From contig CAVTIJ010000008.1 in NCBI GenBank assembly GCA_963734885.1, positions 246,952 through 310,951 of the forward strand: 64,000 bases of DNA, in the 5' to 3' direction. A program made the position numbers and the translations under genes. The stretch comes from an uncultured Bacteroidales bacterium. GTDB taxonomy: Bacteria; Bacteroidota; Bacteroidia; Bacteroidales; VadinHA17. Every line of letters starts with the position of its first letter. The first letter of the stretch is position 1. The notes under the pieces are model-generated. The model had not been told where the DNA came from. It ran no database searches and saw only the letters and a program-made list of their open reading frames with translations. Below are positions 8,193 through 52,644 of this stretch, one piece after another.

Positions 8193-8724
8193 TTTACCCC
8201 CTTTCTTATTTCCCCCAAGGGGGAAATGATAGTTTCTGTTACTGAGATAATTATGAGTTAGAATCTGAGTTATTCATGACCTCTTTAATCTTCTTAATGA
8301 CCAATTCAATTTTGTTTTCAACATCTGAATTCTTAAATCGAATAACTTTCAAACCAGAAGATTCCAGGAATTTAGTTCTTTCAACATCATAATTTTTTCG
8401 ACCTAAATGAATCATCCCATCAATTTCAATAGCCAAATTAGCCTCAAAACAGTAAAAATCCAATATGTAGACTCCATATGGATGCTGTCTACGGAAATGC
8501 ATTCCTTCTATTTTTCTAGCTCTGATATGGTCCCACAGAATTTTTTCCTGGGATGTCATATTTCTTCTTAGCTTCCGTGCTTGATCCTTTAACTTTAAAT
8601 TGGCACCGAAATTATGTTTAGACAAATTTATTAATCGCGAGCAAGCCATATTCTTCCTCCAATCTAATGTTCAGTAAGAAACCACCCCTTCCCCCGTGGG
8701 GGAAGGATGGGAAGGGGGTAAATA
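8193..8724. mobile_element. putative DUF559 mini-cassette bounded by imperfect terminal inverted repeats
   Basis: tttaccccctttc (8193-8205) pairs with ggaagggggtaaa (8712-8724) at 12/13 positions. Inner palindromes are ttcccccaagggggaa (8210-8225) and ccttcccccgtgggggaagg (8689-8708). A single DUF559 ORF lies inside. Confidence 0.4.
8251..8649 (-). CDS. DUF559 endonuclease-domain protein (Vsr/PD-(D/E)XK-like)
   Basis: LRRNMTSQEKILWDHIR, FRRQHPYGVYILDFYC and LAIEIDG..H..Y..R blocks are typical of DUF559. Confidence 0.8.
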   Translation of the reverse strand: MACSRLINLSKHNFGANLKLKDQARKLRRNMTSQEKILWDHIRARKIEGMHFRRQHPYGVYILDFYCFEANLAIEIDGMIHLGRKNYDVERTKFLESSGLKVIRFKNSDVENKIELVIKKIKEVMNNSDSNS

Positions 8725-8739
8725 TCGAGATAAGGGGTT

Positions 8740-10629
8740 TTAATTTCCTACAACCCTCTTCTTTAAATTTTCAGGTGTGAGTGTGATGAGATGACCAATT
8801 TGCTTTCCGTCGCGGAATGTTGCGACTCTTAAAGTGACCGGACCTTCAGGAAGATTAAATGTTTTGGAATATTTAGGCGAATAAATACCCGGCATAGCCC
8901 CGTCAACTGTATAATAGATATCCAAACCCGGAACTTCCGAAGCAAGGTCAACAACCATTTTCCCGTCGGTTTTCTTAACGTTAACGATTGCATCATAAAT
9001 TGCGGTAGAATAATTTACACCTTCCAGATCTGAACGGTCGAATTGTTTCTCAACACGCTGTATGAAATTATTCCAGTTCTTTGAAGCATCGGGCGACCAG
9101 AAATCTTCTGCAAGCGCCCAGGCACGTGGCCATGTCATATATTCTGCATGATGTAATGTTACCACCTGTTCTGTCCAGAGATTTCCCTGGCCGCCAAGGA
9201 TGTATTTGGCATCCACTCCTTCAGGAACCGGATTAAAACTATAGCATTTGGTCAACCTTAGCCCGGCGTAAATAGGTGGTTCAATTGTTTGTTCACCTTG
9301 CTGATAATCGAGGTAACCGAAAGTTGTGGGAGTCATCACAACATAATGGCCCATTTTAGCAGCTTCAATTCCGCCTTTGATACCGCGCCAGCTCATTACT
9401 GTTGCTTCAGGGGCAATACCACCTTCAAGTATTTCATCCCAGCCGATAAGTTTTTTGCCTTTTGATTTCAAAATGGTCTCAACACGTTTCATAAAGTATG
9501 CCTGCAACTCTTCAGGCTTCGTCATTTTCATTTTTTTCATCAAGGCCTGGCAGTTAGGATCTTTTGTCCAGAATCCTTTATAACATTCGTCTCCGCCTAC
9601 ATGTATATAAGGATTTGGGAAGATTGCTGCCATTTCCGTGAAGACTTTATCAAGAAATTCATACACTTTTTCGTCCGAGGGATTCAGTGTATTGTCGATA
9701 CGCATTTTGAATGTACCATCATTGAACCATTCTGAAAATGAAGAACCCGGATTGACTTTTGTTTTGGAATCTTTTGTACAGCTCAGTTCAGGATATGAGG
9801 CAATAGCTGCCATGCTATGTCCGGGTACATCAATTTCGGGCACGATAGTGACAAAACGAGTCGCTGCAAAATCAATTATATCTTTAATATCTGCCTGTGT
9901 GTAAAACCCACCAACAGTAGCTTTTTCACCTTCTTTAGGTTCAGCACGTTCGCCGAACTGGCCATAACGCGGCACTCTCCACGCACCAACTTCGGTTAGT
10001 TTCGGAAGAGACTTGATTTCTATTCTCCATCCGTTGTCGTCTGTTAAATGCCAGTGAAAAGTATTGTATTTATACTTCGCCATCTGGTCGATATATTTTT
10101 CAACCTCTTCTTTCGTGAAAAAATTCCGGCTGACGTCAAGCATCAATCCTCTCCATGCAAAACGTGGATAATCGGTGATTTTTACACCTGGAACTGTCAA
10201 GGTTGCGGTTGTCATTGTTTTGCTCTCGATTTCCTTTGGCAGCAGTTGGAGCAGAGTTTGCATACCATAAAACAGACCTGCCGGTTCGTTTGCCGTAATA
10301 ATAATTCCAGTTGGTGATGATACCAGGGTATAACCTTCTTTTCCGAGCTCTGCAACAGGTGTCTGGCTTAAATTAAACTGGATTGAACCTGAATTTCCCT
10401 GCATGGGCTTAATATCAAACCCCGACGAAAGGCTCAGTTTCTGAGAAAACATATTTGCTATTTTAAGAGCATCCGGTGTATCATAAGTGATACTTGAGGT
10501 TTTCGTAATTTCATAATTGCCTCCTGATTGCTGAATATCTGCAGGTTGAGGAATCACATTTATGGCCGGAGTCTGTGCGAACATCCTGCCCAGAGTTAAC
10601 AGAAGAACGAATAAGAGAATTTTTTTCAT
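8740..10629 (-). CDS. beta-N-acetylhexosaminidase, GH20
   Basis: Signal peptide, HWHLTDDNGWRIEIKS, the HVGGDEC catalytic region and GNLWTE. Confidence 0.9.
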   Translation of the reverse strand: MKKILLFVLLLTLGRMFAQTPAINVIPQPADIQQSGGNYEITKTSSITYDTPDALKIANMFSQKLSLSSGFDIKPMQGNSGSIQFNLSQTPVAELGKEGYTLVSSPTGIIITANEPAGLFYGMQTLLQLLPKEIESKTMTTATLTVPGVKITDYPRFAWRGLMLDVSRNFFTKEEVEKYIDQMAKYKYNTFHWHLTDDNGWRIEIKSLPKLTEVGAWRVPRYGQFGERAEPKEGEKATVGGFYTQADIKDIIDFAATRFVTIVPEIDVPGHSMAAIASYPELSCTKDSKTKVNPGSSFSEWFNDGTFKMRIDNTLNPSDEKVYEFLDKVFTEMAAIFPNPYIHVGGDECYKGFWTKDPNCQALMKKMKMTKPEELQAYFMKRVETILKSKGKKLIGWDEILEGGIAPEATVMSWRGIKGGIEAAKMGHYVVMTPTTFGYLDYQQGEQTIEPPIYAGLRLTKCYSFNPVPEGVDAKYILGGQGNLWTEQVVTLHHAEYMTWPRAWALAEDFWSPDASKNWNNFIQRVEKQFDRSDLEGVNYSTAIYDAIVNVKKTDGKMVVDLASEVPGLDIYYTVDGAMPGIYSPKYSKTFNLPEGPVTLRVATFRDGKQIGHLITLTPENLKKRVVGN

Positions 10630-10674
10630 AAGTGTGGAAAGATTAAAATATCTGTGACTAATTAAATATTTGTT

Positions 10675-11661: not shown

Positions 11662-11767
11662 TTAACCACAAAGTACACAAAGTAGGCACAAAGTACACAA
11701 AGTAAATATCCTTATTTGGATCTTTGTGTCCTTTGTGTTACATCTTTGTGAACTCTGTGGTTAATGG
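11662..11767. repeat. ORF-less palindromic element, TTAACCACAAAG...CTGTGGTTAATGG
   Basis: The left arm ttaaccacaaagtacacaaagtaggcacaaagtacacaaagta and the right arm tctttgtgtcctttgtgttacatctttgtgaactctgtggttaa flank a 16-nt loop. It lies 31 nt downstream of the pruA stop. Confidence 0.75.
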
Positions 11768-11797
11768 ATTTCAGTATCTCACAAAGGAATAATGAAT

Positions 11798-18074: not shown

Positions 18075-18075
18075 T

Positions 18076-19221: not shown

Positions 19222-20125
19222 TTAACTGGCGATCTTCATATGATTCTTAAGAGTAAATACCCTTGAAATGTTAAACCCGAAGCGGATATCTCCTTTTGTC
19301 CAGGTTCCTGTAGTCTCGCCAATAAAAGCTTTTTCAATCATGCCAATCGAATTTGTGAAAAACAACTGGAACACATGTCCCCCGGTTTCAATATCAAAAC
19401 CTATCGACAATGGATTATATACTTTCTGACTCATATATGTTCTTGGATTGAATAAGTAATAGTATTCAGCATTCAGGCTGGTCCTTTTTGTAAGCTTCAA
19501 TCTTGCACCTCCGCCCAAGTGCAAAAAGATCATTGGGATCGAGCTCTGTGGCGACAAGGTTGCGGTGGACATAAGAAGGTGTTAACTGTATTGACAATCC
19601 TTCGCTTATTTTTCGGGCAACAAGAACCTGGGTAACATACGACATCCTTGATGTAAAATAGTTTGTCTGAACTGTACTGGGAAATTTCAATGTTTTGAGA
19701 GCTGCAGAAGTTACAACTGAGAACGATACCGGCATCTCTTTGTCTCCTGTTGATTGACGGAGTATACTGAATTTTGCGAAACCATCAAATGTCTTTTCGT
19801 ATTCGCCTCGTCCGATCACCAACCATCAACCCAGTTTGTTATCCCATATTCCAGACTGAGATGAATATTTGACTGGTCGAGACCAAAAAAATTATATGCG
19901 CCGGTGTTCACCTGTCCGAAACGATGTGAGATTCTGACATCAAGTTGTCCTGCCTGCATTCTTTCGATAGAATGGCCATTCATTATTCTGGTTGACTTAA
20001 AGGTAGCAGTCGTGTAGTTAATTTGTTTTGGGGAATTCTGATCAAGAAGGTTCATAAGATCGTCCTGTGCAAAGATCACTAACGTACACAAAAAGAAGAA
20101 GGGAAGCGAGTAGAAATCGTCTCAT
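19222..20125 (-). CDS. DUF5777-like outer-membrane beta-barrel protein (three frame segments)
   Basis: The signal peptide is at complement 20125. The segments 19816-20091, 19466-19822 and 19222-19572 join into one barrel-like protein that ends in alternating beta-strand residues. Confidence 0.5.
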
Positions 20126-21533: not shown

Positions 21534-21654
21534 AAGTGGTTAAAGGATTAGTAAACGTATTAACAATTGATGTACGCAAATTGTTTCCAAATATTGTTTA
21601 ACATAATGTGATAAAGAACACTCAAAATATTCGAATTAGGGGTGTTAAAAAAAC

Positions 21655-21763
21655 ATTAACCGCAAAGAACGTAAAGGAGGCGCAAAGCGCAAAGCTAAAA
21701 CAATTATAACATTAAGTTCTTTGCGACCTTTGCGTAAATTCTTTGCGACCTTTGCGGTTAATG
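21655..21763. repeat. ORF-less palindromic element, CATTAACCGCAAAG...CTTTGCGGTTAATGG
   Basis: The arms are built from GCAAAG / CTTTGC words with a ~30-nt AT-rich centre. It lies 16 nt downstream of the NUDIX gene stop. Confidence 0.75.
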
Positions 21764-21778
21764 GATTTTAAAAATCCG

Positions 21779-33961: not shown

Positions 33962-34064
33962 GTCATTGCGAGGAGCCTGCGACGAAGCAATCCTTTGTAT
34001 GCAAAACGAACTTAATTGAAATACTGCTTAACCGGAAAGATTGCTTCGCTTCGCTCGTAATGAC
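33962..34064. repeat. inverted pair of GTCATTGCGAG...GAAGCAATC-type palindromic units
   Basis: gtcattgcgaggagcctgcgacgaagcaatcc (33962-33993) and gattgcttcgcttcgctcgtaatgac (34039-34064). Confidence 0.7.
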
Positions 34065-38624: not shown

Positions 38625-38774
38625 TGTATCAAATAGTTATTGTTTAAAAATTAGTAAAAAAAATTCCGACAAAGATAATCAAAATCCTGGCAATAAAAGA
38701 CGTAAGGGTCTAATGGCTTAGATTCTGATCTGGAACTCCCTGCCTCTCATGGTCCCATTAGTCGGGCCCCCCTG

Positions 38775-38799
38775 CCCCCCTAAAGGGGGAAGTTGATAT
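38775..38799. repeat. GGCCCCCCTGCCCCCCTAAAGGGGG motif, perfect inverted partner at 42434-42458
   Basis: Direct reading shows the reverse complement of 42433-42458 begins with the identical 25 nt. Confidence 0.8.
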
Positions 38800-38904
38800 G
38801 TTTATTAGGAATTTTGTAATATTTGTATAAATTGTCATTTAGAATTATATGAGCAATTTCCAGAGTATAATATGTTCTTATGGAGCAAATGCACCAGTGC
38901 TTTA

Positions 38905-39167
38905 AGAGGGCTGCAGCTTCATTTGGAAGATATGACTTTAGCCGAAAAGGTCCTTTGGAATAAACTGAATGGATGAAAAATCTTTAATGCTTAAATTTAC
39001 GAAAACAGCATCCTTCTGGATATTCATCGTTGATTTTATTGTCATGAATATAAACTTGTTTAGAAGTTGATGGAGATATTCACAACGAGATTGAAACAAA
39101 TGAAGACGACTTAGGAAGAACTGCTGAATTCTATGAGATAGATTTTCGTTTAAAAGTGATCAAGTAA
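38905..39167 (+). pseudogene. decayed DUF559 endonuclease gene
   Basis: Fragments in different frames: MTLAEKVLWNKLNG, ..FYCHEYKLV.. and DGDIHNEIETNEDDLGRTAEFYEIDFRLKVIK. They are collinear with the intact DUF559 at 8251-8649. Confidence 0.55.
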
Positions 39168-39301
39168 TACAACAAATAGATACTATTTAAAATTGATTCA
39201 AAGATTTAATTGATTGATTTAACGGACGATTACTGGATCTTAGCCCTTATCCTTAGCAGGGTGCAGTGACCAACAGGGCCTTATTATAAAACTATTGTAT
39301 T

Positions 39302-39996
39302 ATGAAAAAACTGGTCATTTTACCGGCGCCGGTATGAGTTCCGAGAGCGGAATAAAAACTTTCAGGGATTCAGGCGGATTATGGGAAGAATATGAAGTAT
39401 CGGAAGTAGCCACTCCAATGGCCTGGGCGAAAAACAGGGAACTGGTTCTCCGTTTCTATAATGAAAGGAGAAGACAGCTTGCAACGAGTAAACCCAATGA
39501 AGGGCATTTCGGTCTGGCCGCACTCGAGAAATATTTTGATGTTCACATAATTACACAGAATATTGATGATCTGCATGAAAGGGCTGGCAGCACAAAAATC
39601 GTCCATCTGCATGGTGAACTGACAAAAGCCCGAAGCTGCATTGATCCGTCTCTGATTTATGATATTGGATATAAGGATATCAAACCAGGAGATAATTGTG
39701 AAAAGGGGAGCCAGCTGCGTCCTCATATAGTCTGGTTTGGTGAAGAAGTGCCGATGATGGATGAGGCGGCGAATCTTACTGCAGATGCGGATGTATTTGT
39801 TGTGATAGGATCATCGTTGAATGTTTATCCGGCAGCAGGACTCATAGCATATGCACCTGCCAAAGCATCGCTGTGGCTCATTGATCCGAAGGAGGTTGTT
39901 ATTCCGATCAACAGGAAAGTTGAGGTGATAATGGAGAATGCATCGAAAGGGGTGGGGATACTGACAGAGCGACTATTATCTGACAAAATCAAATGA
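39302..39996 (+). CDS. cobB: NAD-dependent protein deacylase (Sir2 family), frame break within the first 10 codons
   Basis: GAGMSSESGIKTFR, QNIDDLHERAG and HG motifs. ATG at 39302 gives MKKLVIL, then the frame shifts at attttaccgg. Confidence 0.8.
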
Positions 39997-40322
39997 AAGG
40001 ATATACTTATATAATGGCCAATAAAAATAATTCTGTCCTTTACACAGGAGTTACTTCGGATTTAGAAAAACGTGTAATTCAACATAAAACAAAAAAGCAT
40101 CATAAAAGCTTCTCCGCTAAATACAATATCTGTAAACTTGTATATTATGAAGAACGTGAAACTATTGGGGAAGCTATAAAAAGAGAGAAACAGATAAAAG
40201 CGGGTTCCCGGAATAAAAAGATTGACCTTATTAATAGTATTAACCCGGAATGGAAGGATTTAAGCTTAATTCTGGACACGAACGGGGGATTGCTTCGCCC
40301 TCCTTCGTCGGGCTCGCAATGA
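39993..40322 (+). CDS. GIY-YIG nuclease family protein (COG2827-type)
   Basis: YTYIMANKNNSVLYTGVTSDLEKRVIQHK. The start overlaps the cobB stop (ATGA). The last ~12 codons are encoded by a palindromic repeat unit. Confidence 0.8.
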   Translation: MKGYTYIMANKNNSVLYTGVTSDLEKRVIQHKTKKHHKSFSAKYNICKLVYYEERETIGEAIKREKQIKAGSRNKKIDLINSINPEWKDLSLILDTNGGLLRPPSSGSQ

Positions 40323-40486
40323 CCGTTTTACTATTTGGAACTGTAACCTCCTTCGTCGGGCTCGCAATGACGGTTTTACTATTTGGCACTGTACCCTCCT
40401 AAGTCGGGCTCGCAATGACGCTGTACATTATTAGGTTAACTGTCATTCCGAGAATACCGCCAATTGGCGGAGACGAAGCAATCCCC
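40285..40486. repeat. repeat cluster: 48-bp tandem (about 2.5 copies) of CCTCCTTCGTCGGGCTCGCAATGAC units plus an inverted GTCATTCCGAG...GAAGCAATCCCC unit
   Basis: cctccttcg recurs at 40299 and 40347, and cctcctaag at 40395 (period 48). The inverted unit is at 40442-40486. Confidence 0.8.
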
Positions 40487-40545
40487 ATGAGCCAGTCTGA
40501 ACAATGGATAAGAATTCACTATCTTTGTTGTCTGTACTTTATCAG

Positions 40546-41125: not shown

Positions 41126-41543
41126 CAGCAGAATAATCAGATTTTTCAGGCGGCATCATGTCCTCACAATTGCAACTACTGTTGACAATGAGCCCTGGTG
41201 TGCAAATTGTTTTTACGCTTATCTGGAAGAAGAAAATTCACTTGTCTTCACAACAGATGCTGATACCCGACACGGGAAAGAATTTCTGATAAATCCGGTT
41301 GTTGCGGGATCAGTGGTTCTCGAAACCCTGGTGATAGGAAAGATCCGCGGAATTCAGTTTCAGGGAACAGTGTCAGAACCGGAGGGTGAATTACTAAATA
41401 AAGCTAAATGGGCATATCTGAAGAAATTCCCTCCGGCCGCGCTGATGGATACGCATCTGTGGGTTGTAAAGCTGACGAAGATCAAAATGACGGATAACAG
41501 GCTGGGGTTTGGGAAAAAGTTAATTTGGACGATGGAGGATTGA
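41118..41543 (+). CDS. pyridoxamine 5'-phosphate oxidase family protein (YhbP/UPF0306-like)
   Basis: 141-aa ORF. The split-barrel pattern HHVLTIATTVDNEPWCANCFY...GIQFQG matches this family. Confidence 0.6.
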   Translation: MIDSRIIRFFRRHHVLTIATTVDNEPWCANCFYAYLEEENSLVFTTDADTRHGKEFLINPVVAGSVVLETLVIGKIRGIQFQGTVSEPEGELLNKAKWAYLKKFPPAALMDTHLWVVKLTKIKMTDNRLGFGKKLIWTMED

Positions 41544-41569
41544 GTTATTTTATATTTTCTGACACGAGT

Positions 41570-41666
41570 GGGGGATTGCTTCGCCTTCCTTCGTCAGGCT
41601 CGCAATGACAATATACTTCATTAAAGTTCACGATCCTTGCGAGGAGCGAAGCGACGAAGCAATCTC
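41570..41666. repeat. inverted pair of GATTGCTTCG...CGCAATGAC / GCGAGGAGCGAAGCGACGAAGCAATC units
   Basis: ggggattgcttcgccttccttcgtcaggctcgcaatgac (41570-41609) and ccttgcgaggagcgaagcgacgaagcaatctc (41635-41666). Confidence 0.7.
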
Positions 41667-41753
41667 TCTGCGAACCTCTGATCCCTGGTGAGTTGATTCG
41701 TCACTTTTCTAAATTTCCCTAATTTTACACCATAATTAATCCAATAAGATACT

Positions 41754-42380
41754 ATGTTTTCAGGAATAATCGAAGAAGCTGCTCAGGTTATAAAACTTGA
41801 AAAAGAAAAAGACAATCTTCATATTACGATGAAATGTTCATTCGTTAATGAACTGAAGATCGATCAGAGTATATCCCATAACGGAGTATGCCTCACAGTA
41901 GTAAAGAAAGATAAAGAGACTTATACCGTAACTGCAATAAAGGAAACTCTTGACAAGACAAATCTCGGATTACTTAAGCCGGGCGACAAAGTGAACCTTG
42001 AACGAAGTACTCGTCTCGATGGCCGTCTCGACGGGCATATGGTGCAGGGACATGTTGACCAGACGGCAGTATGTACCAGTGTCAGGGAAGCCGGAGGCAG
42101 CTGGTATTACACTTTTAAATATGAGCCTGCGCAGGATGATTATATTACTGTGGAAAAGGGATCAGTATCGGTAAACGGGGTCAGCCTTACGGTTGTAAAC
42201 TCAAAACAGGGATCTTTCGAAGTGGCGATAATCCCCTTTACGTGGGAGGTCACTAATTTCCATCAGATCAAAAAAGGAACTGTTGTGAATATTGAATTTG
42301 ATATTCTGGGGAAATATATTGCAAAGATTGTAAAACAGCAGCTTGGGGCCCCTCTCCCGCTAAAGCGGGATCTCCCCTAA
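41754..42380 (+). CDS. ribE: riboflavin synthase alpha chain
   Basis: MFSGIIEE...SHNGVCLTV and the duplicated lumazine-binding repeat GSVSVNGVSLTV. The C-terminal ..GAPLPLKRDLP is encoded by a palindromic repeat. Confidence 0.85.
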   Translation: MFSGIIEEAAQVIKLEKEKDNLHITMKCSFVNELKIDQSISHNGVCLTVVKKDKETYTVTAIKETLDKTNLGLLKPGDKVNLERSTRLDGRLDGHMVQGHVDQTAVCTSVREAGGSWYYTFKYEPAQDDYITVEKGSVSVNGVSLTVVNSKQGSFEVAIIPFTWEVTNFHQIKKGTVVNIEFDILGKYIAKIVKQQLGAPLPLKRDLP

Positions 42381-42458
42381 AGGGGAGAAAATACACGTAC
42401 TGTCCCGAATTTTAATTTGTACTGAGAATTTACCCCCCTTTAGGGGGGCAGGGGGGCC
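42346..42458. repeat. cluster of C-run/G-run hairpins (cctctcccgctaaagcggga, ctcccctaaaggggag, cccccctttagggggg)
   Basis: Read directly. The first two hairpins overlap the last codons and the stop of ribE. Confidence 0.75.
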
Positions 42459-42524
42459 AATTTTAAACAAAAAGCCGCCCATCTCCCGGACAGCCTTTAC
42501 GCCTTTATGCCGTTAAGCCATTTA

Positions 42525-42902
42525 TTACTTCTGTTTCATCTTAGCATCCATGCTCAATGTAGCATGAGGAACTGCTCTCAGTCTTTCTTTAGAGATAAGT
42601 TTCCCTGTTTCACGGCATATGCCATAAGTTTTATTTTCAATTCTGATCAGAGCAGCCTGAAGATGCTGTATGAATTTCTCCTGACGTTGAGCAAGTCGCC
42701 CCGCTTCTTCTTTGGATAAAGTGGTTGCACCTTCTTCAAGTACCTTGAAAGTGGGAGAGGTATCCATAGTATCATTACTCTCTTCGTGAGTAATACTGGA
42801 TTTTAATATTTCATAATCCTTTCTGGCTTTATCCAGCTTGCTGAGAATTATTTGACGGAATTCCTCAAGCTCATCATCAGAATATCTTGTCTTTTCAGCC
42901 AT
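42525..42902 (-). CDS. TraR/DksA family transcriptional regulator
   Basis: A coiled-coil N-terminus followed by YGICRETGKLISKERLRAVPHATL, the Bacteroidota DksA-like zinc-finger-region variant. Confidence 0.7.
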   Translation of the reverse strand: MAEKTRYSDDELEEFRQIILSKLDKARKDYEILKSSITHEESNDTMDTSPTFKVLEEGATTLSKEEAGRLAQRQEKFIQHLQAALIRIENKTYGICRETGKLISKERLRAVPHATLSMDAKMKQK

Positions 42903-42991
42903 TTGTTAAATTTTTTATTCCCCGCAAAGGTATTCAAAATTTATTAAATTAAAAATCAACTAAAAAATGAAGGTTGCACATTAATGATAAA

Positions 42992-43606
42992 CGGCATGCG
43001 GTGTGCGGTGTGCGGTCCGAGGCAAAAAACTAAACGGTGCGCAGGTTTCCGGTGTGAGGTACTTAACCGTACTCGCGGCGTGCGATACGCGGTAGAAGAA
43101 CTCAAAATTTATTTAGCTTATTTAAGAATTATTTAGTCTTGCTTTGATTAGGTTTGAAAGCATTGCCGATATCTTATCACATTCATCAACAAGTACATTT
43201 TTTGTATTTTCATCTATATAACCAATTTCATTTGCAATTATTAATTGAGTCATAAGCTCAGCTGTAGAACCTTTCGAAATGTAAAAGTGTCTTATAGCTA
43301 ATTTATCAGTTCCGAGCTCATCTCCTTCTGCAATATTACTTGCAATGCTTACAGAGGAACGTTAATTTGATCCTTTAGTCCAAAATCTTTTGAAAATTCA
43401 CTGGATCTGGTTAAACGATAGATTTTTACGGCAATTCTTTGGCGATTTGCCAAACGCGAAGTTTCTGAAAATTTCCCATAATGCAGCGGTTTTAGATTAG
43501 TAAATTTAGCACAAGGGTAAAGATAAGAATTTTGATATAATAAAAAACCGCGAACCGCACGCCGCAAACCGAACCCCGCTTACCGATACCGCACACCGCA
43601 CACCGC
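42992..43606. mobile_element. putative IVS-like cassette: inverted GCGGTGTG/CACACCGC 8-mer arms around a decayed four-helix-bundle gene
   Basis: There is a perfect 19-nt terminal inverted repeat: gcggtgtgcggtgtgcggt (42998-43016) and accgcacaccgcacaccgc (43588-43606). Confidence 0.45.
43122..43479 (-). pseudogene. four-helix-bundle protein (23S rRNA intervening-sequence protein family), two frame breaks
   Basis: The three pieces MGNFQKLRVWQIAKEL / AVKIYRLTRSSEFSKDFGLKDQI / SIASNIAEGDELGTDKLAIRHFYISKGSTAELMTQLIIA lie in three frames. Confidence 0.65.
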
Positions 43607-43608
43607 TT

Positions 43609-45158
43609 TTAATTACTCCTCGCCTTCCTAAACAATATATTCCAGCTCGATTTCCAGAAATACCGAAAATCAGTAGAGACCGGATGCTTATCGTATGAAT
43701 CGAGATATTTCATTTCAGATTCCTGAATCTCAACAAGATCAGAAGGCATATCTGCATAGAACGGAGGGATCAGTCCGGGTTTGTATTTAATTCGTCTCTC
43801 CCGGACATCCTTTCTGTATAGGTCAAAATATTGTTTGCTCAACGGACGTACACCCACAATTTTCATATCGCCCTGCAAAAATTCTTCACCATAGGCAGTT
43901 CATCGAGCCAGATCCTTCTGCAGATTGATCCCCATGAGGTAATACGGAAGTCATTTTTGAACTTTCCTCCCTCGCTGAAGATCATGCATTTTATAAACGT
44001 AACCCTGCAGATATTCGGAATATGGATGCATTGTCCTCAGTTTATAAACCTTTATCATATTTCCTTCCTGCCCGACCCTTGATAATGCAATCAGAGGTCC
44101 GTATACTGTGCCGTTAATATAAATAGGATCGTTATACTTTCTTGCCTCAATACACAGCAGGTTGCCGATGAACAATTCCTGTTTTATCCTGAATCCTGCC
44201 CTGCAGATTCTCCCGAGTGTTTCAGCACGCGACATTACAGTATTCTCTCCTCTTGTAAGAAACATATAAATACCGCGGGTGAACCTGATCTTCGGGAGTA
44301 TTCTTTTTACCAAAAAGTCTAAAGAATAATAAATATAATTAAACACCGGAGGATACTTGTTTAACAGACGCTTTTTCCTCTGATCTTTTGTTTCAACCAC
44401 ACAGAAAAAAAAGCCTTTCATTTCGAGCTTGCTGTTCACTGCATCGAGAAACTTGTCGAACTTCTGTATGTCGTTTATTTTGTGAAGATTGATTATATAA
44501 TCGTATCTCTCCTTAATCAGACTTTTAATATTAAAAATTGAAGTGGTTGATAACACTGCTGTCCTGTCGGTAAAGTTATTGCAGGTCATTCTGAGTATTG
44601 CCTTTGCCATTTCGGGTCCGCATTCTTTTTCGATTGAATTGGCAATTCCGGGGTTCACATCGCTATGATCGTCGTTTATTTACTTCGTTTCCGTTGGAAC
44701 CATTGACAAGGTCATATTCGCTGGGTTTTTTATATTTTCTGTACCTGTCGTCATCATCGTTATTCTGGACAGTTGCTTTTTTATAAGCCATATAGACTGA
44801 ACCGAACAGCGAGTTCAAGAATTGTTGCCAGAATGGTCGTTCCGAGAACGATGGTTCTTGAATATCCGAATGTCCTGAAGCTATACATCGCCAGAGCAGT
44901 AAGGGATATAGCAATAATATTACTTGTTATGATTCGTGCAAAAAGGGTGGAAAATCCGGTTATCCTGCTTCGGCTCATTTTCCCGTTGATGAAAGAAACA
45001 ACTATCCACATCACTGCAAGACCAAGAAAGAAAGGAGTATGAGAAGGCAAATATGATCTCAGGCTTGCAGGTTTTGTCCAAACCATTGCAAGAAAAGAAA
45101 CAGAAAGAATTATAACATCGGCCAGGAGGGTTATGGTCCTGAATCTACGCTTCTCCAT
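43609..45158 (-). pseudogene. polyprenyl-phosphate sugar phosphotransferase (bacterial sugar transferase family), about 3 frame breaks (or sequencing errors)
   Basis: N-terminal TM region (44781-45158). C-terminal LQGDMKIVGVRPL and KPGLIPP motifs (43609-43878). A WLDELP segment lies in a third frame near 43900. Confidence 0.65.
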
Positions 45159-45285
45159 CGGTTATCCAACGATCAGGTTAGGTTAACGAGAATGCTAAGT
45201 AAATAAAAAATTCAGCAATCTCTACAAACATGACATAATTATCATGGATTTGGTTGCATAGATTTCTATTCCTTCCCTGGTTTTC

Positions 45286-47369
45286 CATTTCCCCTTTTTT
45301 TGGAGGCTTGTCTTACATCGTATTTATTAAAATTCAGGTAGTCCCTGGGAGATCCTTCATCTTCCGCAAGATAAAAATTGTCATTTACTCCATATATGTA
45401 TTTTGCGGAAGATTCAGGATGACAGGTTGTTATGGGATAATAATGGGGAAGGAAGCGGCGCCTTTTGTGCTAATATTTCTTTATTCAGAAAATTTGATTC
45501 AAAAGGCGCCGCTTCCTTTTCCTACAAGCCCCAAATTACATTGTCATCCTGAATTTCGCTGGTACGCAGCTTGCGGAGTACCAGTGAAATGAAGGATCCC
45601 CTTCTCTTTCTCAGAAATCCTGTAGATGTAAAAGGAGGGAAACTTTGTTATGCAGTTTCTCATTCATCCCCAAAGCTTAGGTTGACGGCTATGAGGAAGG
45701 GGGTGAGTTATGTAAGGCCAAAAGGAAGAGGGCCGGCCAAGCCAAATTCCCGATAACAAAGATGTGTATAAAGGGTAGTGTGGAGCAGAGAGGGGAAGGG
45801 GGCATAGCCATCAACCTACGGAGTTGAATAAAGTTTAAAGTATTGAAATTAAATCAGATACATTTCCCCTTTTTTTGGAGGCTTGTCTTACATCGTATTT
45901 ATTAAAATTCAGGTAGTCCCTGGGAGATCCTTCATCTTCCGCAAGATAAAAATTGTCATTTACTCCATATATGTATTTTGCGGAAGATTCAGGATGACAG
46001 GTTGTTATGGGATAATAATAGGGAAGGAAGCGGCGCCTTTTGTGCTAATATTTCTTTATTCAGAAGAATTGATTCAAAAGGCGCCGCTTCCTTTTCCTAC
46101 AAGCCCCAAATTACATTGTCATCCTGAATTTCGCTGGTACGCAGCTTGCGGAGTACCAGTGAAATGAAGGATCCCCTTCTCTTTCTCAGAAATCCTGTAG
46201 ATGTAAAAGGAGGGAAACTTTGTTATGCAGTTTCTCATTCATCCCCAAAGCTTAGGTTGACGGCTATGAGGAAGGGGGTGAGTTATGTAAGGCCAAAAGG
46301 AAGAGGGCCGGCCAGGCCAAATTCCCGATAACAAAGATGTGTATAAAGGGTAGTGTGGAGCAGAGAGGGGAAGGGGGCATAGCCATCAACCTACGGAGTT
46401 GAATAAAGTTTAAAGTATTGAAATTAAATCAGATACATTTCCCCTTTTTTTGGAGGCTTGTCTTACATCGTATTTATTAAAATTCAGGTAGTCCCTGGGA
46501 GATCCTTCATCTTCCGCAAGATAAAAATTGTCATTTACTCCATATATGTATTTTGCGGAAGATTCAGGATGACAGGTTGTTATGGGATAATAATGGGGAA
46601 GGAAGCGGCGCCTTTTGTGCTAATATTTCTTTATTCAGAAGAATTGATTCAAAAGGCGCCGCTTCCTTTTCCTACAAGCCCCAAATTACATTGTCATCCT
46701 GAATTTCGCTGGTACGCAGCTTGCGGAGTACCAGTGAAATGAAGGATCCCCTTCTCTTTCTCAGAAATCCTGTAGATGTAAAAGGAGGGAAACTTTGTTA
46801 TGCAGTTTCTCATTCATCCCCAAAGCTTAGGTTGACGGCTATGAGGAAGGGGGTGAGTTATGTAAGGCCAAAAGGAAGAGGGCCGGCCAAGCCAAATTCC
46901 CGATAACAAAGATGTGTATAAAGGGTAGTGTGGAGCAGAGAGGGGAAGGGGGCATAGCCATCAACCTACGGAGTTGAATAAAGTTTAAAGTATTGAAATT
47001 AAATCAGATACATTTCCCCTTTTTTTGGAGGCTTGTCTTACATCGTATTTATTAAAATTCAGGTAGTCCCTGGGAGATCCTTCATCTTCCGCAAGATAAA
47101 AATTGTCATTTACTCCATATATGTATTTTGCGAAAGATTCAGGATGACAGGTTGTTATGGGATAGTAATAGGGAAGGAAGCGGCGCCTTTTGTGCTAATA
47201 TTTCTTTATTCAGAAAATTTGATTCAAAAGGCGCCGCTTCCTTTTCCTACAAGCCCCAAATTACATTGTCATCCTGAATTTCGCTGGTACGCAGCTTGCG
47301 GAGTACCAGTGAAATGAAGGATCCCCTTCTCTTTCTCAGAAATCCTGTAGATGTAAAAGGAGGGAAACT
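45286..47369. repeat. tandem array, 575-bp unit x 3.6 copies
   Basis: Identical landmarks recur at 45308, 45883, 46458 and 47033. Homology starts at catttcccc (45286) and ends at agggaaact (47369). The copies differ by only a handful of substitutions. Confidence 0.95.
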
Positions 47370-47601: not shown

Positions 47602-47825
47602 CGCCCTTCCGCCTTTCCGCCTTTCCGCCTTTCCGCCCTTACGCCTTTCCGCCCTTCCGCCTTTCCGCCTTTCCGCCCTTCCGCCTTTCCGCCTTTCCGC
47701 CCTTCCGCCTTTCCGCCCTTCCGCCTTTCCGCCCTTCCGCCTTTCCGCCCTTCCGCCTTTCCGCCCTTCCGCCTTTCCGCCCTTCCGCCTTTCCGCCCTT
47801 CCGCCTTTCCGCCTTTCCGCCTTTC
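47602..47825. repeat. 28 tandem 8-mers, CGCCYTTC
   Basis: Counted directly: 28 consecutive units with one variant (cgccctta). The array ends 64 nt upstream of the UpxY ATG (47890). Confidence 0.95.
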
Positions 47826-47889
47826 TTACCCCCTTACGCCAAAATAATTAAATAATGATTTATCTTTGTCCCCGTTTAAAAGGTTAAAA

Positions 47890-48438
47890 ATGTCTGAACC
47901 TGAAACCACATCTGAACAAGAACAAAATCTCAGCAGGAAAATTACTGAGGACAAATGGTATGCCATTTATACCCGTCCCCGGGCCGAGAAGCTTGTCTTT
48001 GCACGTCTTGAAGAGGAGAGCATTGAGACATTCCTGCCGTTGCAGAAGACCTTCAGGGTTTGGAGTGACAGGAAAAAGCTCGTGGAAAAACCGCTTCTTC
48101 CTTCGTACATATTTGTAAAGACAAACAAGAAAAATTTCCCGAAGGTATATAAGATCATAGGAGTAGTTAAGTTCGTCTCTTTTGAAGGGAAAGCCGTTTC
48201 AATACCTCAAAAACAGATAGATAATCTCAGGTTGTTAATCAACAGCAATGCTGAAATCGAAGTAAGTTCCGAGAAGTTCTCTGCGGGTGATAATGTTGAA
48301 GTTACTAATGGCGCTCTTGCGGGACTAACGGGTGAGTTAATAAGGATCGGCAGCAAAAACCGTGTTGTGGTCCGCATTGACCGGCTCGATCAGAATCTCA
48401 TACTCAAAATCCCGAAAGCCTTTCTCAAAAAAGTGTAA
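47890..48438 (+). CDS. UpxY-family transcription antiterminator (NusG paralogue)
   Basis: NGN domain KWYAIYTRPRAEK...PLLPSYIFV and KOW motif GDNVEVTNGALAGLTGELI. ATG at 47890 is preferred over TTG at 47866. Confidence 0.85.
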   Translation: MSEPETTSEQEQNLSRKITEDKWYAIYTRPRAEKLVFARLEEESIETFLPLQKTFRVWSDRKKLVEKPLLPSYIFVKTNKKNFPKVYKIIGVVKFVSFEGKAVSIPQKQIDNLRLLINSNAEIEVSSEKFSAGDNVEVTNGALAGLTGELIRIGSKNRVVVRIDRLDQNLILKIPKAFLKKV

Positions 48439-48440: not shown

Positions 48441-49056
48441 ACTGTCTTACGAATTTATTGTCTTGCGGTCTTGCAGTCTTGCGGTCCTGCAGTCATTTAT
48501 TTACCAGATTTCAGATACTTGGAAACGTCTTGCGGTCATGCGGTCTTGCAGTCCTTTATTTACCAGATTTCAAATATTTCATAAGTATACTTATTCTGTT
48601 TATCAGCGATTGGATTCTTTCTCTTCGATCAATTGCTGTTTCCGGAAGAACGTATTCTTGATCTTCGGCTATATAATACATACTTTTTACCTCTCCTGCA
48701 GAACCCTTTGAAATGTTGAGGAATTGTTTAAACTCTGAATCACTGTTTCTGCAGAAACCTTCAGCGATATTATTCATTGAAGATATTCCGGCTCTTGAAA
48801 TCTGATCTTTGAATGAAAAGTCACGGCATTTTCTCAGGTCTGAATAAATCAGATTAACAAGCTCTCTGGAAATCTTCCAGATCTCGAGATCTTCGAAATT
48901 TTTAATTGTTCCCATCTTAGCACGATTTAGATTATGGGAACTAAATTATTAAATTTTTTTAAATGCAAGACCGCAAGACTGCAAGACTGCAAGACCGCAT
49001 GACCGCAAGACTGCAAGACCGTAATACCCACCGCAAGACCGCAAGACCGCAAGACT
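48441..49056. mobile_element. putative IVS-like cassette: inverted GTCTTGCR/YGCAAGAC 8-mer arms around an intact four-helix-bundle gene
   Basis: The left arms (48459-48490 and 48527-48552) are the reverse complement of the right array (48966-49056). The best pairing is 21 nt (48466-48486 with 49001-49021). The cassette starts 3 nt after the UpxY stop. Confidence 0.45.
48556..48915 (-). CDS. four-helix-bundle protein (23S rRNA intervening-sequence protein family, TIGR02436-like)
   Basis: FEDLEIWKISRELVNLIY...FSFKDQISRAGISSMNNIAEGF...KGSAGEV is the family signature. Confidence 0.8.
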   Translation of the reverse strand: MGTIKNFEDLEIWKISRELVNLIYSDLRKCRDFSFKDQISRAGISSMNNIAEGFCRNSDSEFKQFLNISKGSAGEVKSMYYIAEDQEYVLPETAIDRRERIQSLINRISILMKYLKSGK

Positions 49057-49115
49057 AATATCGCTATTCGGAAAAATATATTTAATTTTGCCGGTAACTC
49101 TTAAGTTAATTACTC

Positions 49116-49526
49116 TTGAAAAGTCTAATTAGTATATCAGATATTGCGTTGGCCATTGAGGAAAAATTTCCCGAAATACCGTTTGCCCATATTTTTGGTT
49201 CATCGGTCGATGGAGTCGTAAATGATGGATCTGATATTGACATTGCGATATGGTATAATGGAACAGATCCTTTTATAAAAGTAAAAGTGTTGGAAACCAT
49301 TGAGCCCATAGTCAAAAATATAGCGACAGACATTGTAAATATTTGCAACGCAGACCCGTTGCTGGCTCATGAAGCTCTTGCCGGCATTGTTTTGTTTGTA
49401 CGCGAAGGAAAGAAATCACATTATGCTTCTTTTTATTCAAAAATTGCAGCCGAATACGAGGATAGAATATATTGGATTCAGAAACAATTAGAATACCGGG
49501 GCTATGAGGTACAATGGAATCATTGA
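49116..49526 (+). CDS. mntA: MntA-type nucleotidyltransferase antitoxin
   Basis: FGSSVDGVVNDGSDIDIAIW (the GSx10-DxD minimal NTase motif). It overlaps the downstream DUF86 gene by 23 nt. Confidence 0.75.
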   Translation: MKSLISISDIALAIEEKFPEIPFAHIFGSSVDGVVNDGSDIDIAIWYNGTDPFIKVKVLETIEPIVKNIATDIVNICNADPLLAHEALAGIVLFVREGKKSHYASFYSKIAAEYEDRIYWIQKQLEYRGYEVQWNH

Positions 49527-49908
49527 GGCAAAACTCAGGACAATTGAGGAGAAGATACTTGAAATAGAAAGTTGGCAGATTCTCTCTTATCAACAATTAC
49601 AAACAAATTCGATGTTGCGAAACGCAACTGAACGTGCTCTTCAGGTAGCGATTGAAGCAATCGTTGACATTTGTGAACATATACTTGCAATTGAAGGCAT
49701 TTCAGCGCCCGACACATCGGCAAATGTGGTAAAAAAGATTATTGATATGGGTATTATCACAAATAATCCTGAATATCTTGAAATGATTCGTTTTCGAAAT
49801 TTCATTGTACACCGGTACGAAAAAATTGATTTGGAGATAATTTACTCCATTGTGTCAAAAAAACTACCTGTTTTCCGGAAGTTTATTCACGAAATAAGAA
49901 ATAGTTAA
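49504..49908 (+). CDS. hepT: HepT-type (DUF86) RNase toxin
   Basis: RNFIVHRY (Rx4HxY HEPN motif) near the C-terminus, with the size and pairing typical of HepT. Confidence 0.75.
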   Translation: MRYNGIIEAKLRTIEEKILEIESWQILSYQQLQTNSMLRNATERALQVAIEAIVDICEHILAIEGISAPDTSANVVKKIIDMGIITNNPEYLEMIRFRNFIVHRYEKIDLEIIYSIVSKKLPVFRKFIHEIRNS

Positions 49909-49928
49909 GCCTTATCCTTTTTTCCCGT

Positions 49929-49973
49929 AAGACCGCAAGACTGCAAGACCGCAAGACCGCACGACCGCAGGAC
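49929..49973. repeat. GCAAGACY 8-mer array, same orientation as 48966-49056
   Basis: aagaccgcaagactgcaagaccgcaagaccgcacgaccgcaggac. Confidence 0.8.
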
Positions 49974-49979
49974 TGATTT

Positions 49980-50986: not shown

Positions 50987-51078
50987 CCACGCACCACGCC
51001 CTCCGCACCATTTAAACCAACCACATCAGTTTCCCCAACCTGAAAGGATAATGCAATATAGCCATCATACCATTGCAC

Positions 51079-51986
51079 TTATACCGGTTTTTCATCCATT
51101 GAAGCGAAGGAAATAATATCACCGCTAAGGAACCTCAACCTCTTTTCCCGGGGGGATTGATTTGAAGTTAATTTTAAATGCATTTTTAACAGATTTTTAT
51201 TTTGTCCCTGTTGTGGTTTTAAAAAAACTATCGGGCATTTGCAGTCTGATGATTTATCCAGCATAATGATATCGGCATACAACCGCAACTGGCAATTCCT
51301 TCTCCAAATGTCTTTTAAAATGATGAGAAGATGCATTAATTGTAATTCGGAGGAAGGATCCATGCATTCGTTCCTATTATGAAATTTCAGCTGCATCATC
51401 AACAGGATTTCCATTGGGATGTCAGACTGGTTTCAGCAAACAATTTATGATGCATTTCAACTGAATAATCATCCTTTATATAAACCGGGAAGATGTTTTC
51501 CGATATCAAGTTGTATAGCGGTATGCAGAGGTGATTTTATTAATCCTTGTGAAAATCCATTTTGCTTCAGCAATTCCAGGCTTTAAGTGGCATCTTCTCG
51601 TTTTACAAGGATATCATTATCGGTCATCTGGCGCAACCCTTTAGAATCATAAAGTGTATGTTCCAGTGCCATGCCTTTCAGAAGCACATGTTTTATCCCT
51701 GCATTTGTAAGTATGGTATTTACTTCTTTCCATCGCTCTGTGAGCCATAGGTTACGCACCACACTCTTAATATATCCATTTTCAAGGATTGCCATTGCTT
51801 CCTGAGGAACTTCTTTAGCAGACCGGCTTCTTTAATATTATATGCAGCAAGGGCGATTATCCCATGAGCGTTGATCAGGTTGACAAGTCCAAGCCAATCC
51901 GAAATCTCCATGATAATTTTGAATAGTTGTTCCCGGTTCTTATCCTCATAGGGATAACGACAAAGTAGTAATAGAAGCTCTCGCAT
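51079..51986 (-). pseudogene. nucleotidyltransferase-family (NTP_transf_5-like) gene broken into several frames
   Basis: Collinear pieces are 51720-51986, 51583-51795 (..HVLLKGMALEHTLYDSKGLRQMTDNDILV) and 51079-51414. Confidence 0.45.
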
Positions 51987-52016
51987 AAGGCCAAAGTTAA
52001 TTTATTTTCCACTAAT

Positions 52017-52644
52017 GGTGCAGGGTGCAAGGTGCATGGTGCAGGGTGATTTTCTCAAAGGTGCAAGATGCATGGTGCAGGGTAAATTTTCAAAAAGGTG
52101 CAAGGTGCAGGATGCATGGTGTAGGGTATTTTCATAAAAGGTGCAAGGTGCAGGATGCATGGGTGCAGGGGTGAATTTTTACGTCCTCCAATTATTTTCT
52201 ACATAATCAATATAGGAGTTTATTTTTCTTCCAAGCGTTTCATACTCAGTTGAAAGAGAACTAAAGTCTAATATTTCAGGGTATAAGACAATTAACATTT
52301 CCAATTGACTGAGTGCTTCATCACAGGAAGAGTGGGAATAAACCAGGAATTTTATGTAATCTGCTTTATATCGGCGACGACCATAACCCTCTGTGATTTG
52401 ATCTTTAACACTCTTAGAGGATCTTCTTACCTGACTTCCTTGTTCAAAAAGTTCAAATTTGGGCAATTTAAGAGATGCCTTATGTACCCGGACAGCAAGA
52501 TCAAAAGAAAGCTTGTAGATTTCCAAATCTCTATAACTACTCATAATAAGCACGATGCGAGTCGAGTACCGAAGATAAGAATAATAAAAGTAATATCCAA
52601 TATGCACCTTGCACCTCGCACCCTGCACCCCGCACCCTGCACCA
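52017..52644. mobile_element. putative IVS-like cassette: inverted GGTGCARG/CYTGCACC 8-mer arms around an intact four-helix-bundle gene
   Basis: The left arm (52017-52172, four blocks of 8-mer run plus an AT-rich tail) is inverted relative to the right arm (52604-52644). Confidence 0.45.
52179..52544 (-). CDS. four-helix-bundle protein (23S rRNA intervening-sequence protein family)
   Basis: MSSYRDLEIYKLSFDLAVRVHK...FELFEQGSQVRRSSKSVKDQITEGY...YSHSSCDEA. The track's longer start (52628) merely translates the repeat arm. Confidence 0.75.
   Translation of the reverse strand: MSSYRDLEIYKLSFDLAVRVHKASLKLPKFELFEQGSQVRRSSKSVKDQITEGYGRRRYKADYIKFLVYSHSSCDEALSQLEMLIVLYPEILDFSSLSTEYETLGRKINSYIDYVENNWRT

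Follow-up and report, generated by a model that had tools for sequence, protein, structure and literature searches.

We analysed a 64,000-nucleotide (nt) stretch of DNA from an uncultured Bacteroidales bacterium (hereafter the window; G000:C8:246952-310951, where G000 is this genome, an assembly of 4.32 Mb in nine contigs with 39% G+C, whose Por-secretion tails and nearest-grouping genomes agree with Bacteroidota). The window carries small genes of three families, namely a single-domain GIY-YIG gene, DUF559 genes and four-helix-bundle genes (PF05635 / TIGR02436), and each family is accompanied by its own class of structured repeat: SRM-like hairpin units, pyrimidine/purine hairpins of a predicted triplex type, and inverted arrays of short tandem repeats, respectively. 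Below, G-numbers denote genomes compared with G000, C-numbers contigs of G000 and L-numbers loci from other Bacteroidota genomes. The elements of the window are as follows.

8189..8726, minus strand: DUF559 element, consisting of R hairpin (8189-8226), gene (8251-8649, 132 residues, PF04480 E-value 1.2e-37) and L hairpin (8689-8726).
33962..33992, plus strand: solo SRM-like unit.
38755..39190, plus strand: degraded DUF559 module, with a family-B C6/C6/G5 hairpin (38755-38790) followed by a frameshifted remnant (~38925-39190).
39993..40322, plus strand: small single-domain, Ssn-like GIY-YIG gene (109 residues; PF01541 E-value 4.6e-16 over residues 2-76; no other Pfam or NCBIfam family above threshold).
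40275..40490: SRM-like cluster behind the GIY-YIG gene, with full units at 40288-40323 (minus) and 40442-40483 (plus) and, within a 48-nt tandem repeat (40298-40420), two partial ones.
41561..41680: gene-less inverted SRM-like pair, 41574-41609 (minus) and a degenerate 41634-41665 (plus), between a PNPOx-like gene and ribE.
42339..42483: gene-less family-B triplex-type element of ~145 nt, from which ribE (41754-42380) takes its final 10 codons and its stop.
42990..43606, minus strand: broken four-helix-bundle cassette; gene ~43122-43479 with in-frame stops (PF05635 E-value 7.5e-19, one TAA inside), 3′ arm ~42990-43100, 5′ arm 43547-43606, 7-nt unit GCGGTGT/ACCGCAC.
45286..47350: four tandem copies of a 575-bp unit, each with two SRM-like units of the sister type (GTCATCCTGAA..GAAGGATC) in inverted orientation; related pieces at 30372-30526 and 31681-31793.
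48441..49062, minus strand: four-helix-bundle cassette; gene 48556-48915 (119 residues, Pfam E-value 3e-26, TIGR02436), 3′ arm 48441-48553, doubled by a 59-nt tandem copy that takes in the gene tail and the arm, 5′ arm 48960-49062, 8-nt unit GTCTTGCG.
52014..52647, minus strand: four-helix-bundle cassette; gene 52179-~52549 (Pfam E-value 1.1e-21), 3′ arm 52014-52179 with ~3.9 repeats at a 43-nt period, 5′ arm 52603-52647, 7-nt unit GGTGCAG.

An earlier note on this DNA had claimed that each gene family travels with a repeat class of its own, and the specificity of the pairing was confirmed in other genomes. For each family the 29 loci with the best scores in other Bacteroidota genomes were examined with three fixed detectors, with the DUF559 and GIY-YIG loci drawn from one 200-genome sample and the four-helix-bundle loci from a 60-genome sample. 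Inverted tandem arrays were detected at 9/29 four-helix-bundle loci, a pyrimidine-arm/purine-arm hairpin within 150 nt at 17/29 DUF559 loci (seven with both sides) and an SRM-like unit within 250 nt at 21/29 GIY-YIG loci (12 with both sides). Hits occurred only on the diagonal of this 3x3 test: each of the six cross-pairings of repeat class and gene family gave 0/29, and when moved to shifted positions within these loci as a control the detectors gave 0-2/26. A looser score, obtained by aligning one flank locally with the other in reverse complement, reached at least 16 at 18/29 four-helix-bundle loci (eight of them clearly periodic), 14/29 DUF559 loci and 2/29 GIY-YIG loci, with 0/26 in every control.

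Small dispensable genes and repeats might simply accumulate together by chance in permissive intergenic DNA, with no specific link between them. The genome is indeed repeat-rich, with 979 short-period arrays, ~150 C/G hairpins and ~118 SRM-like units, many of which flank ordinary genes. However, the six off-diagonal cells stand at 0/29 against 9-21/29 on the diagonal, the orientation of the gene relative to the L and R ends is identical in both intact DUF559 copies of the genome, and the arrays on either side of each four-helix-bundle gene share a unit and are inverted. The observation is real and goes much beyond chance; we regard coincidence as extremely improbable.

A whole-genome scan found two small GIY-YIG genes, the one in the window and a paralogue at C3:16574 (55% identity), plus UvrC and one other long protein. 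The start of the window gene overlaps the stop of a SIR2 gene, and its last ~15 codons and stop lie inside the repeat unit 40288-40323. Homologues are present in 95 of the 200 other Bacteroidota genomes sampled, the alignment covering residues ~4 to ~90-92. Units of the first type consist of GTCATTGCGAG, a variable hairpin and CGAAGCAATC (the GTCATTGCGAG..GAAGCAATC units); allowing one mismatch per end, there are 28 genome-wide and four in the window. The C3:16574 paralogue lies directly behind seven tandemly spaced sister units, GTCATTCCGAATGGAGCG.AGCGAAATGAGGAACC, and with 90 sister-type units in the genome the SRM-like units total ~118 for two GIY-YIG genes. The basal 5-bp stem covaries between unit types (ATTGC/GCAAT, ATCCT/AGGAT, ATCCC/GGGAT), with GTC and the two GAR triplets fixed, and nearly all GIY-YIG loci of the phylum sample, read by eye, show variants of the unit. 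The claim of one GIY-YIG gene and four orphan repeat sites in the window stands for the gene, with its units at 40288-40323 and 40442-40483, and undercounts the orphans: besides 33962-33992, 41574-41609 and the degenerate 41634-41665 there are nine further sister-type units, located at 31712-31767 and in the 45286-47350 tandem.

SRM-like units also occur in long tandem repeats with periods of ~250-575 nt, each of which carries one or two units; beyond the window such tandems lie at C1:504932-507453, C4:682970-683755, C4:701205-702357, C4:847893-849820, C3:14471-16411 and C3:29969-31735. About 20 loci hold an inverted pair made of a 56-nt and a 72-nt GTCATCCTGAA..GAAGGATC unit. Among the sequencing runs listed for this genome are four soil DNA runs from one study (shares 0.06-0.28) and no RNA run. 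On soil metagenome contigs the summed depth rises to 1680 at 41637-41664 (SRM-like) and 210 at 42421-42457 (family B), with 0-10 at neighbouring genes, so both kinds of unit must be very common in that soil community.

The GIY-YIG part of the window resembles the Ssn system, described for SsnA of Neisseria meningitidis and its NTS repeat (Chenal et al. 2025, PMC11893778, here and below as given in the accessible part of that paper). SsnA cuts single-stranded DNA beside the repeat, and 71% of ssnA homologues have flanking SRM; SsnA/NTS modulates natural transformation in N. meningitidis, with a mobile-element origin raised as a hypothesis only. Common to both systems are a single-domain GIY-YIG protein of ~100 residues (~94-100 in the published cases, 109 here, of which the last ~15 are repeat-encoded), a gene flanked by many-copy oriented hairpin repeats that start with GTCAT and end with AATC (NTS is CGTCATTCCCGCGMAVGCGGGAATCYRG), gene-less copies between genes, and paralogues with unit variants of their own. 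In contrast to the published repeat, the units here have an internal loop made of GAR/GAR and a distal hairpin that varies, and the published motif misses them: the degenerate SRM motif gave four matches in this genome versus 10, 4, 6, 6 and 10 in five first-order Markov simulations. Rows for Flavobacterium and Ignavibacterium in Supplementary Data 4 of the same paper list a cd10448 (GIY-YIG_unchar_3) homologue with an SRM enrichment of ~1. Since the GTCAT...AATC frame is that of NTS, yet the motif misses the units, we take this part of the window to be the known system in a variant that the published search did not capture. The predicted order within a unit is GTC, 5-bp stem, GAR, variable hairpin, GAR, stem complement and C; by analogy with SsnA/NTS, the most likely action of the nuclease is to recognise the unit when it is folded in single-stranded DNA, bind there and cut next to it.

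For DUF559, the whole-genome scan found two intact genes (8251-8649 and C1:289169) and one fragment. Both intact genes share their flanks: upstream the L hairpin, ACCCCCTTCCCAxCCTTCCCCC-NN-GGGGGAAGG, and downstream the R hairpin, TTTCCCCC-NN-GGGGGAAATAAGAAAGGGGGT. Each end comprises a pyrimidine stem, a loop, a purine stem and, ~3 nt further on, a mirror-image purine run, an arrangement found at both element ends and in 16 gene-less doublets. In a strict census there are 18 L+R pairs with outward third runs. Sixteen are gene-less (~80 nt), with hairpins 12-16 nt apart; the other two have 436 and 461 nt between the hairpins (461 in the window element 8189-8726), and it is these that contain the two intact DUF559 genes of the genome, each read in the L-to-R direction. 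As in a family of MITEs (miniature transposable elements with inverted repeats), short gene-less copies thus have both ends in common with longer gene-bearing copies (16 versus two L+R pairs), and the only gene found in the L+R elements is the Vsr-fold nuclease. Some 25 more hairpins of the L or R type stand alone or belong to decayed doublets. The flanks of the miniature copies prolong the inverted repeat (TTTACCCCC / GGGGGTAAA), which masks any target-site duplication, and empty sites are unalignable at the nucleotide level.

A related family B, CCCCCC-TTTA-GGGGGG-CA-GGGGGG plus inner hairpins (~145 nt), is present at 42339-42483, C2:407405 and C8:112239, with a half copy at 38755-38790. Behind this half copy, three co-linear fragments in three frames match positions 31-44, 49-74 and 76-105 of a profile built from 12 DUF559 proteins (E-values 0.0017, 0.0015 and 1.4e-6; the tblastn match of the remnant is weak). 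Because a frameshifted remnant follows the half family-B copy, the earlier count of two DUF559 genes with C-run/G-run hairpins in the window, the intact 8251-8649 and the frameshifted ~38925-39190, was right.

The hairpins have the architecture of the BoxC/PIT/TM repeats, that is, a pyrimidine stem, a short loop, a purine stem, ~3 nt and a mirror purine stem (Holder et al. 2015, PMC4666352, in the part of the text consulted for it). Here the arrangement is CCTTCCCCC-NN-GGGGGAAGG-NNN-GGAAGGGGG, and in both cases the repeats are intergenic, multi-copy and at variable loci; the triplex is, in our case, predicted from sequence. The differences are that the TMECO pattern CCCTCNCCC N3-6 GGGNGAGGG N3 GGGNGAGGG does not describe the stems here, which are CCTTCCCCC or TTTCCCCC, and that two inverted motifs here make one unit, which either encloses a DUF559 gene or is collapsed to ~80 nt. 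In E. coli K-12 the DUF559 gene is ycjD; a C-stem/G-stem hairpin lies at the stop codon of this gene and, ~165-220 nt downstream, a complete TM motif (CCCTCGCCCC-TCT-GGGGAGAGGG-TTA-GGGTGAGGG). Since the accessible text of Holder et al. gives just 23 TMECO copies in the 4.6-Mb E. coli genome (PMC4666352), chance adjacency to ycjD is unlikely. Near-TMECO stems (CCCTCTCC..GGAGAGGG TTA GGGTGAGG) flank DUF559 in other Bacteroidota loci, for example L026 and L028, and 29/29 phylum DUF559 loci, read by eye, show such a hairpin beside the domain. A search of the full text of Holder et al. returned no mention of DUF559 or ycjD, and reports that mobility functions were never found beside TMECO (PMC4666352). 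We found no publication that ties BoxC/PIT/TM repeats to DUF559, and none of the DUF559 papers listed, judged by title or the beginning of the abstract, is on repeats. In our proposal the Vsr-fold DUF559 nuclease, enclosed by two inverted BoxC/PIT/TM-type motifs, would be the partner enzyme that makes or maintains the triplex-type repeats, and the gene-less L+R doublets would be miniature derivatives.

At ~14/29 of the phylum loci (L010-L012, L015, L016, L018, L020, L022, L024, L025, L027, L029, L035, L036) a long open frame of ~800-1100 residues runs through the DUF559 domain and its pyrimidine/purine hairpins, which are in frame with it. These would be intein-like insertions of the whole module, the host genes being putative; judged by motifs, we presume that they resemble methionine synthase, leucyl-tRNA synthetase, acetyl-CoA synthetase and type I restriction genes. 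In a PADLOC search DUF559 gave weak restriction-enzyme-like matches only, and there was no match for the GIY-YIG protein, the four-helix-bundle proteins or MNT/HepT.

As for the four-helix-bundle genes, inverted 7-9-nt tandem arrays surround 11/11 PF05635 loci of the genome (10 from a whole-genome Pfam scan plus one frameshifted locus), three of them in the window; the Pfam scan also gave matches in Bacteroides thetaiotaomicron, included as a control. At each, a short-period array upstream of the gene is the reverse complement of the array downstream, and the unit differs at every locus (GTCTTGCG, GGTGCAG, GCGGTGT, GTTTATC, GGTGCTG, TAAAGGCT, GACGAAGA, GCGTAGA, AAGTCAAA and one A/T-rich unit at the ten Pfam-scan loci). 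The claim of three such genes with inverted 8-mer arrays holds for the three loci, one of them broken; the period is 8 at one of them and 7 at two. In a genome-wide Tandem Repeats Finder census (979 arrays of period 6-10), 51/979 arrays had an inverted partner within 1 kb, versus 7/979 at random places. Inverted array pairs 200-600 nt apart occur at 12 loci, of which nine hold a Pfam-called four-helix-bundle gene and a tenth, C2:697353-697871, a frameshifted one, whose two fragments match PF05635 positions 6-43 and 50-97 (E-values 6e-4 and 1.4e-3, each singly under the gathering score). Array units were grouped into families by single linkage, which chained unrelated units together; the clustering was used for counts only.

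RNA folding of the cassettes paired the 5′ arm with the 3′ arm in the minimum-energy structure of all 11, with 27-79 pairs and z-scores of -0.8 to -7.2 (nine at or below -2.6). Within the window, z was -7.2 for 48441-49062 (65 arm-to-arm pairs), -5.6 for 42990-43606 (54) and -4.6 for 52014-52647 (45). The six intact paralogues of this genome share 24-62% identity, and the 62% pair has related units (GGTGCAG / GGTGCTG); in two sister species the homologues (72% identical in nucleotides) come with a unit of the GTCGTGCA type and a period of 9, compared with GTCTTGCG of period 8 here. The related units of the closest pair and the shift from GTCGTGCA to GTCTTGCG imply that the unit is inherited with the gene and that both arms change together. 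A cassette behind the NusG-like gene is convergent with it in G000 and co-directional in G005 (L006), the opposite orientation that would be expected if inverted arms recombine; within 1.5 kb of the NusG-like orthologue no cassette was found in G018, G016 or G012.

The layout, in which inverted short tandem arrays make up a long foldback and the four-helix-bundle gene occupies its loop, is that of the intervening sequences (IVS) of 23S rRNA that bear an open reading frame (ORF). The accessible text on the Coxiella burnetii 23S rRNA IVS with S23p describes a 28-bp terminal stem, excision by RNase III and old mobility hypotheses, and cites Leptospira (PMC4990558). Shared features are a PF05635 ORF of ~120 residues in the loop of a terminal-inverted-repeat stem and an element of ~430-620 nt. 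Unlike the IVS, the cassettes here lie outside rRNA, between protein genes, and their arms are 7-9-nt tandem arrays rather than simple inverted repeats; a scan of the window found no Rfam family at the gathering threshold, hence no rRNA at the window cassettes. Among the papers listed, a literature search for four-helix-bundle cassettes outside rRNA gave only the Coxiella IVS paper (bioRxiv supplements and subscription journals lay beyond the search), and one on HEPN, Avd and S23 returned nothing relevant.

We propose that the arms most likely pair in the transcript, where RNase III would cut, and that as DNA they would let the cassette flip or be lost. A narrower explanation, confined to this family, is that the arms act purely in RNA: an RNase III-cut stem would release or silence a small mRNA and insulate the neighbours, and the cassette, with no mobility of its own, would spread by general recombination and horizontal transfer. 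Arm-to-arm folding of 11/11 cassettes, the cutting of IVS stems by RNase III (PMC4990558, accessible text), the age of the paralogues and the covariation of the arms with the unit sequence left free, as expected of a pairing constraint, all fit such a role. It leaves unexplained, however, why the arms are tandem arrays and not simple inverted repeats, the tandem duplication of the 3′ arm and gene tail at three loci, and the flip of a cassette between two species at one site. A purely RNA-level role is therefore a possibility that we hold only tentatively.

Several further observations concern the arrays themselves. The tandem duplication of the 3′ arm and the last gene codons, 2 to 3.9 times, is seen at 48468-48579, 52014-52179 and C2:411225-411352. 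Upstream of the NusG-like gene (47866-48438) lies an orphan array of 28 copies of the 8-nt CGCCTTTC, with a 16-nt super-period (47602-47825), for which no inverted partner was seen. An MNT-HepT toxin-antitoxin pair (49116-49908, plus strand; whole feature 49116..49975) sits between direct copies of one 8-nt array (48965-49055 and 49925-49973), and the bracketing array is also the 5′ arm of the adjoining four-helix-bundle cassette; in G007 and G010 (loci L002 and L003) the orthologous pair, with 76-87% amino acid identity, is bracketed by short-period arrays of other units. Heptamer arrays of CACC(G/C)CG / GCACCCT at 60617-60689 and 60990-61066, in the same orientation and just beyond the range of the earlier note, flank ~300 nt and correspond, as reverse complements, to the arms at 52014-52048. 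Upstream of the start of four-helix-bundle genes, a CGTGCTAA motif was present at 4/8 of the genome's own loci and at 0/29 phylum loci, and was dropped as a candidate.

The presence/absence comparison proposed in the earlier note revealed occupied and empty sites for all three module types. Between the lactonase/phosphoesterase and GH20 genes, G000 and G007 carry the DUF559 element (74% identity, the left hairpin of G007 being decayed), G010 and G232 have ~10-36 nt of plain spacer, G018 has a heptamer array, and G235 has a CACAAAG-type array and an SRM fragment. The GIY-YIG gene is next to SIR2 in 7/36 genus genomes with a match and is absent at the three SIR2 junctions examined (G232, G007, G010), two of which hold family-B-like triplex hairpins. 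Occupied sites, empty sites and sites with other repeats fit insertion and loss of discrete modules, and gene-less repeat copies, also claimed at the outset, exist for all three classes.

Repeats have in addition rewritten two gene ends. At ribE, homology to relatives stops at ~42347; the family-B element replaces the last codon and stop and adds APLPLKRDLP*, such that the protein ends in ..KQQLGAPLPLKRDLP* here and in ..KQQLGR* and ..KQQLGK* in two sister species (asterisk, stop). The RibE profile ends at residue ~192-197 of 208, and in G007 only 44 nt separate ribE from the dksA-like gene. Of the three reshaped ends originally named, ribE and the GIY-YIG tail were borne out and the third was not: no GT-C-fold gene was found, only Bac_transf sugar-transferase fragments, and an array ends 2 nt from the stop of one of these (43609-43878), leaving it unaltered.

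These comparisons also bear on the possibility that the modules are domesticated host systems, in which the repeats are kept for the cell's use (control of recombination or transformation, transcript ends, mRNA stability), the genes encode host readers or processors, and patchiness reflects gene turnover. Such a role is in keeping with the modulation of N. meningitidis transformation by SsnA/NTS, where domestication is discussed by the authors (PMC11893778, accessible part), with the location of the repeats almost wholly between genes, with the place of GIY-YIG beside SIR2 in seven genus genomes, and with a DUF559 element at one site common to two species at 74% identity. It sits poorly with a single intergenic site that holds different repeat classes or nothing in sister species, with the intrusion of repeats into coding ends and the frequency of broken gene copies, and with the excess of gene-less copies over genes (16:2 for L+R doublets, ~118:2 for SRM-like units). 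Moreover, no promoter or terminator role is reported for PIT elements, and TM sites are linked to instability, in the consulted part of Holder et al. (PMC4666352). We consider domestication rather unlikely as the general explanation.

The modules also invite comparison with the repetitive extragenic palindromes (REP/REPIN) and their RAYT genes and with MITEs. In all of these a single- or few-copy gene is flanked by a palindromic repeat with many gene-less copies, often as inverted doublets. Here, however, there is no HUH (RAYT) or DDE transposase, the proteins being instead a GIY-YIG nuclease, a PD-(D/E)XK Vsr-fold nuclease and a four-helix bundle, and no target-site duplication could be made out at the flanks examined.

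Collectively, these results suggest that the window holds three independent gene-plus-structured-repeat modules of one general design, with the actions and origins proposed above; we think this account of the whole probable, with appreciable room for doubt. Each module would consist of a very small gene for a protein that acts on nucleic acids, enclosed by or abutting its own repeat class, which is able to fold into a non-B structure. There is good support for three parallel, family-specific modules that come and go. The observations comprise the pairing of each family with its own repeat, the gene-less copies, the gain and loss at orthologous sites and the two rewritten gene ends. That each protein acts on its own repeat, and the manner in which the modules move, we infer; the interpretation in the earlier note is supported in part.

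A number of observations weigh against this account. The strict detectors caught just 9/29, 17/29 and 21/29 loci, the remainder resting on looser scores or reading by eye, and the loci were top matches rather than a random draw, from related genomes that are not independent. The published SRM search motif fails to detect the units of this genome and gives no enrichment. Most 7-8-nt arrays of the genome lie far from any four-helix-bundle gene, and paralogues that are 24-62% identical with differing units point to old copies and not to recent transposition in this genome. Neither a target-site duplication nor an excision junction was seen for the modules at the miniature-copy flanks and empty sites examined. 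Metagenome contigs on 38600-45200 were considered as evidence of excision or expression and rejected: the cover is fragmentary, and the 'joints' join repeat copies, probably from other loci or organisms. Long genes of the window are broken into adjoining ORFs (IleRS 35171-38624, alpha-2-macroglobulin 24651-28947, DegT aminotransferase 58358-59504, DUF5777 19222-20091), which suggests assembly frameshift errors or widespread pseudogenes, and with many split genes in the assembly the 'broken' small-gene copies may partly be sequencing errors. Finally, repeats do not dominate the intergenic space, as had been asserted: they make up ~4.1 kb, or ~24% of the approximately 17.4 kb of non-coding DNA in the window, and are no majority.

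A fourth abundant class of repeat, 9-10-nt arrays of CACAAAGGN / CCTTTGTG, has about 240 members genome-wide and occurs in the window at 1502-1545, 1616-1638, 11667-11773 and 21640-21779. These arrays often form a hairpin pair with a 6-26-nt loop beside a conserved AAATCCATTAACC motif; they flank ordinary genes and have no link to any of the three gene families.

The three parts of the finding differ in how far they extend what has been described. One third, GIY-YIG, is published; in the DUF559 third a repeat that is already published gains a new link; and the four-helix-bundle third extends a known rRNA element to ordinary intergenic DNA. It is possible, if at present doubtful, that proteins of ~100-130 residues that read a DNA or RNA shape and not a sequence, together with a flank that folds into that shape, form a general and largely undescribed type of minimal selfish module, with DUF559 (YcjD in E. 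coli) as the missing partner of BoxC/PIT/TM and with tandem arms that keep pairing while their sequence drifts. The shape may then differ by family, with GIY-YIG reading a hairpin, DUF559 an intrastrand triplex and the four-helix bundle a slippable foldback, and protein plus flank may be the whole element.

For annotation, such repeats create false gene extensions, as in the ribE and GIY-YIG tails, and give rise to spurious ORFs within arrays. Biotechnology takes an interest in the Ssn family for its site-specific single-strand DNA nucleases, and the Bacteroidota-type repeat widens the set of enzyme-site pairs. For the BoxC/PIT/TM repeats, which are without a function or partner protein in the literature found, the link to DUF559 supplies a candidate enzyme, represented by ycjD in E. 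coli K-12. Four-helix-bundle cassettes outside rRNA would, in turn, give the intervening sequences of 23S rRNA a new meaning, as just one of the places where a broader element lands.

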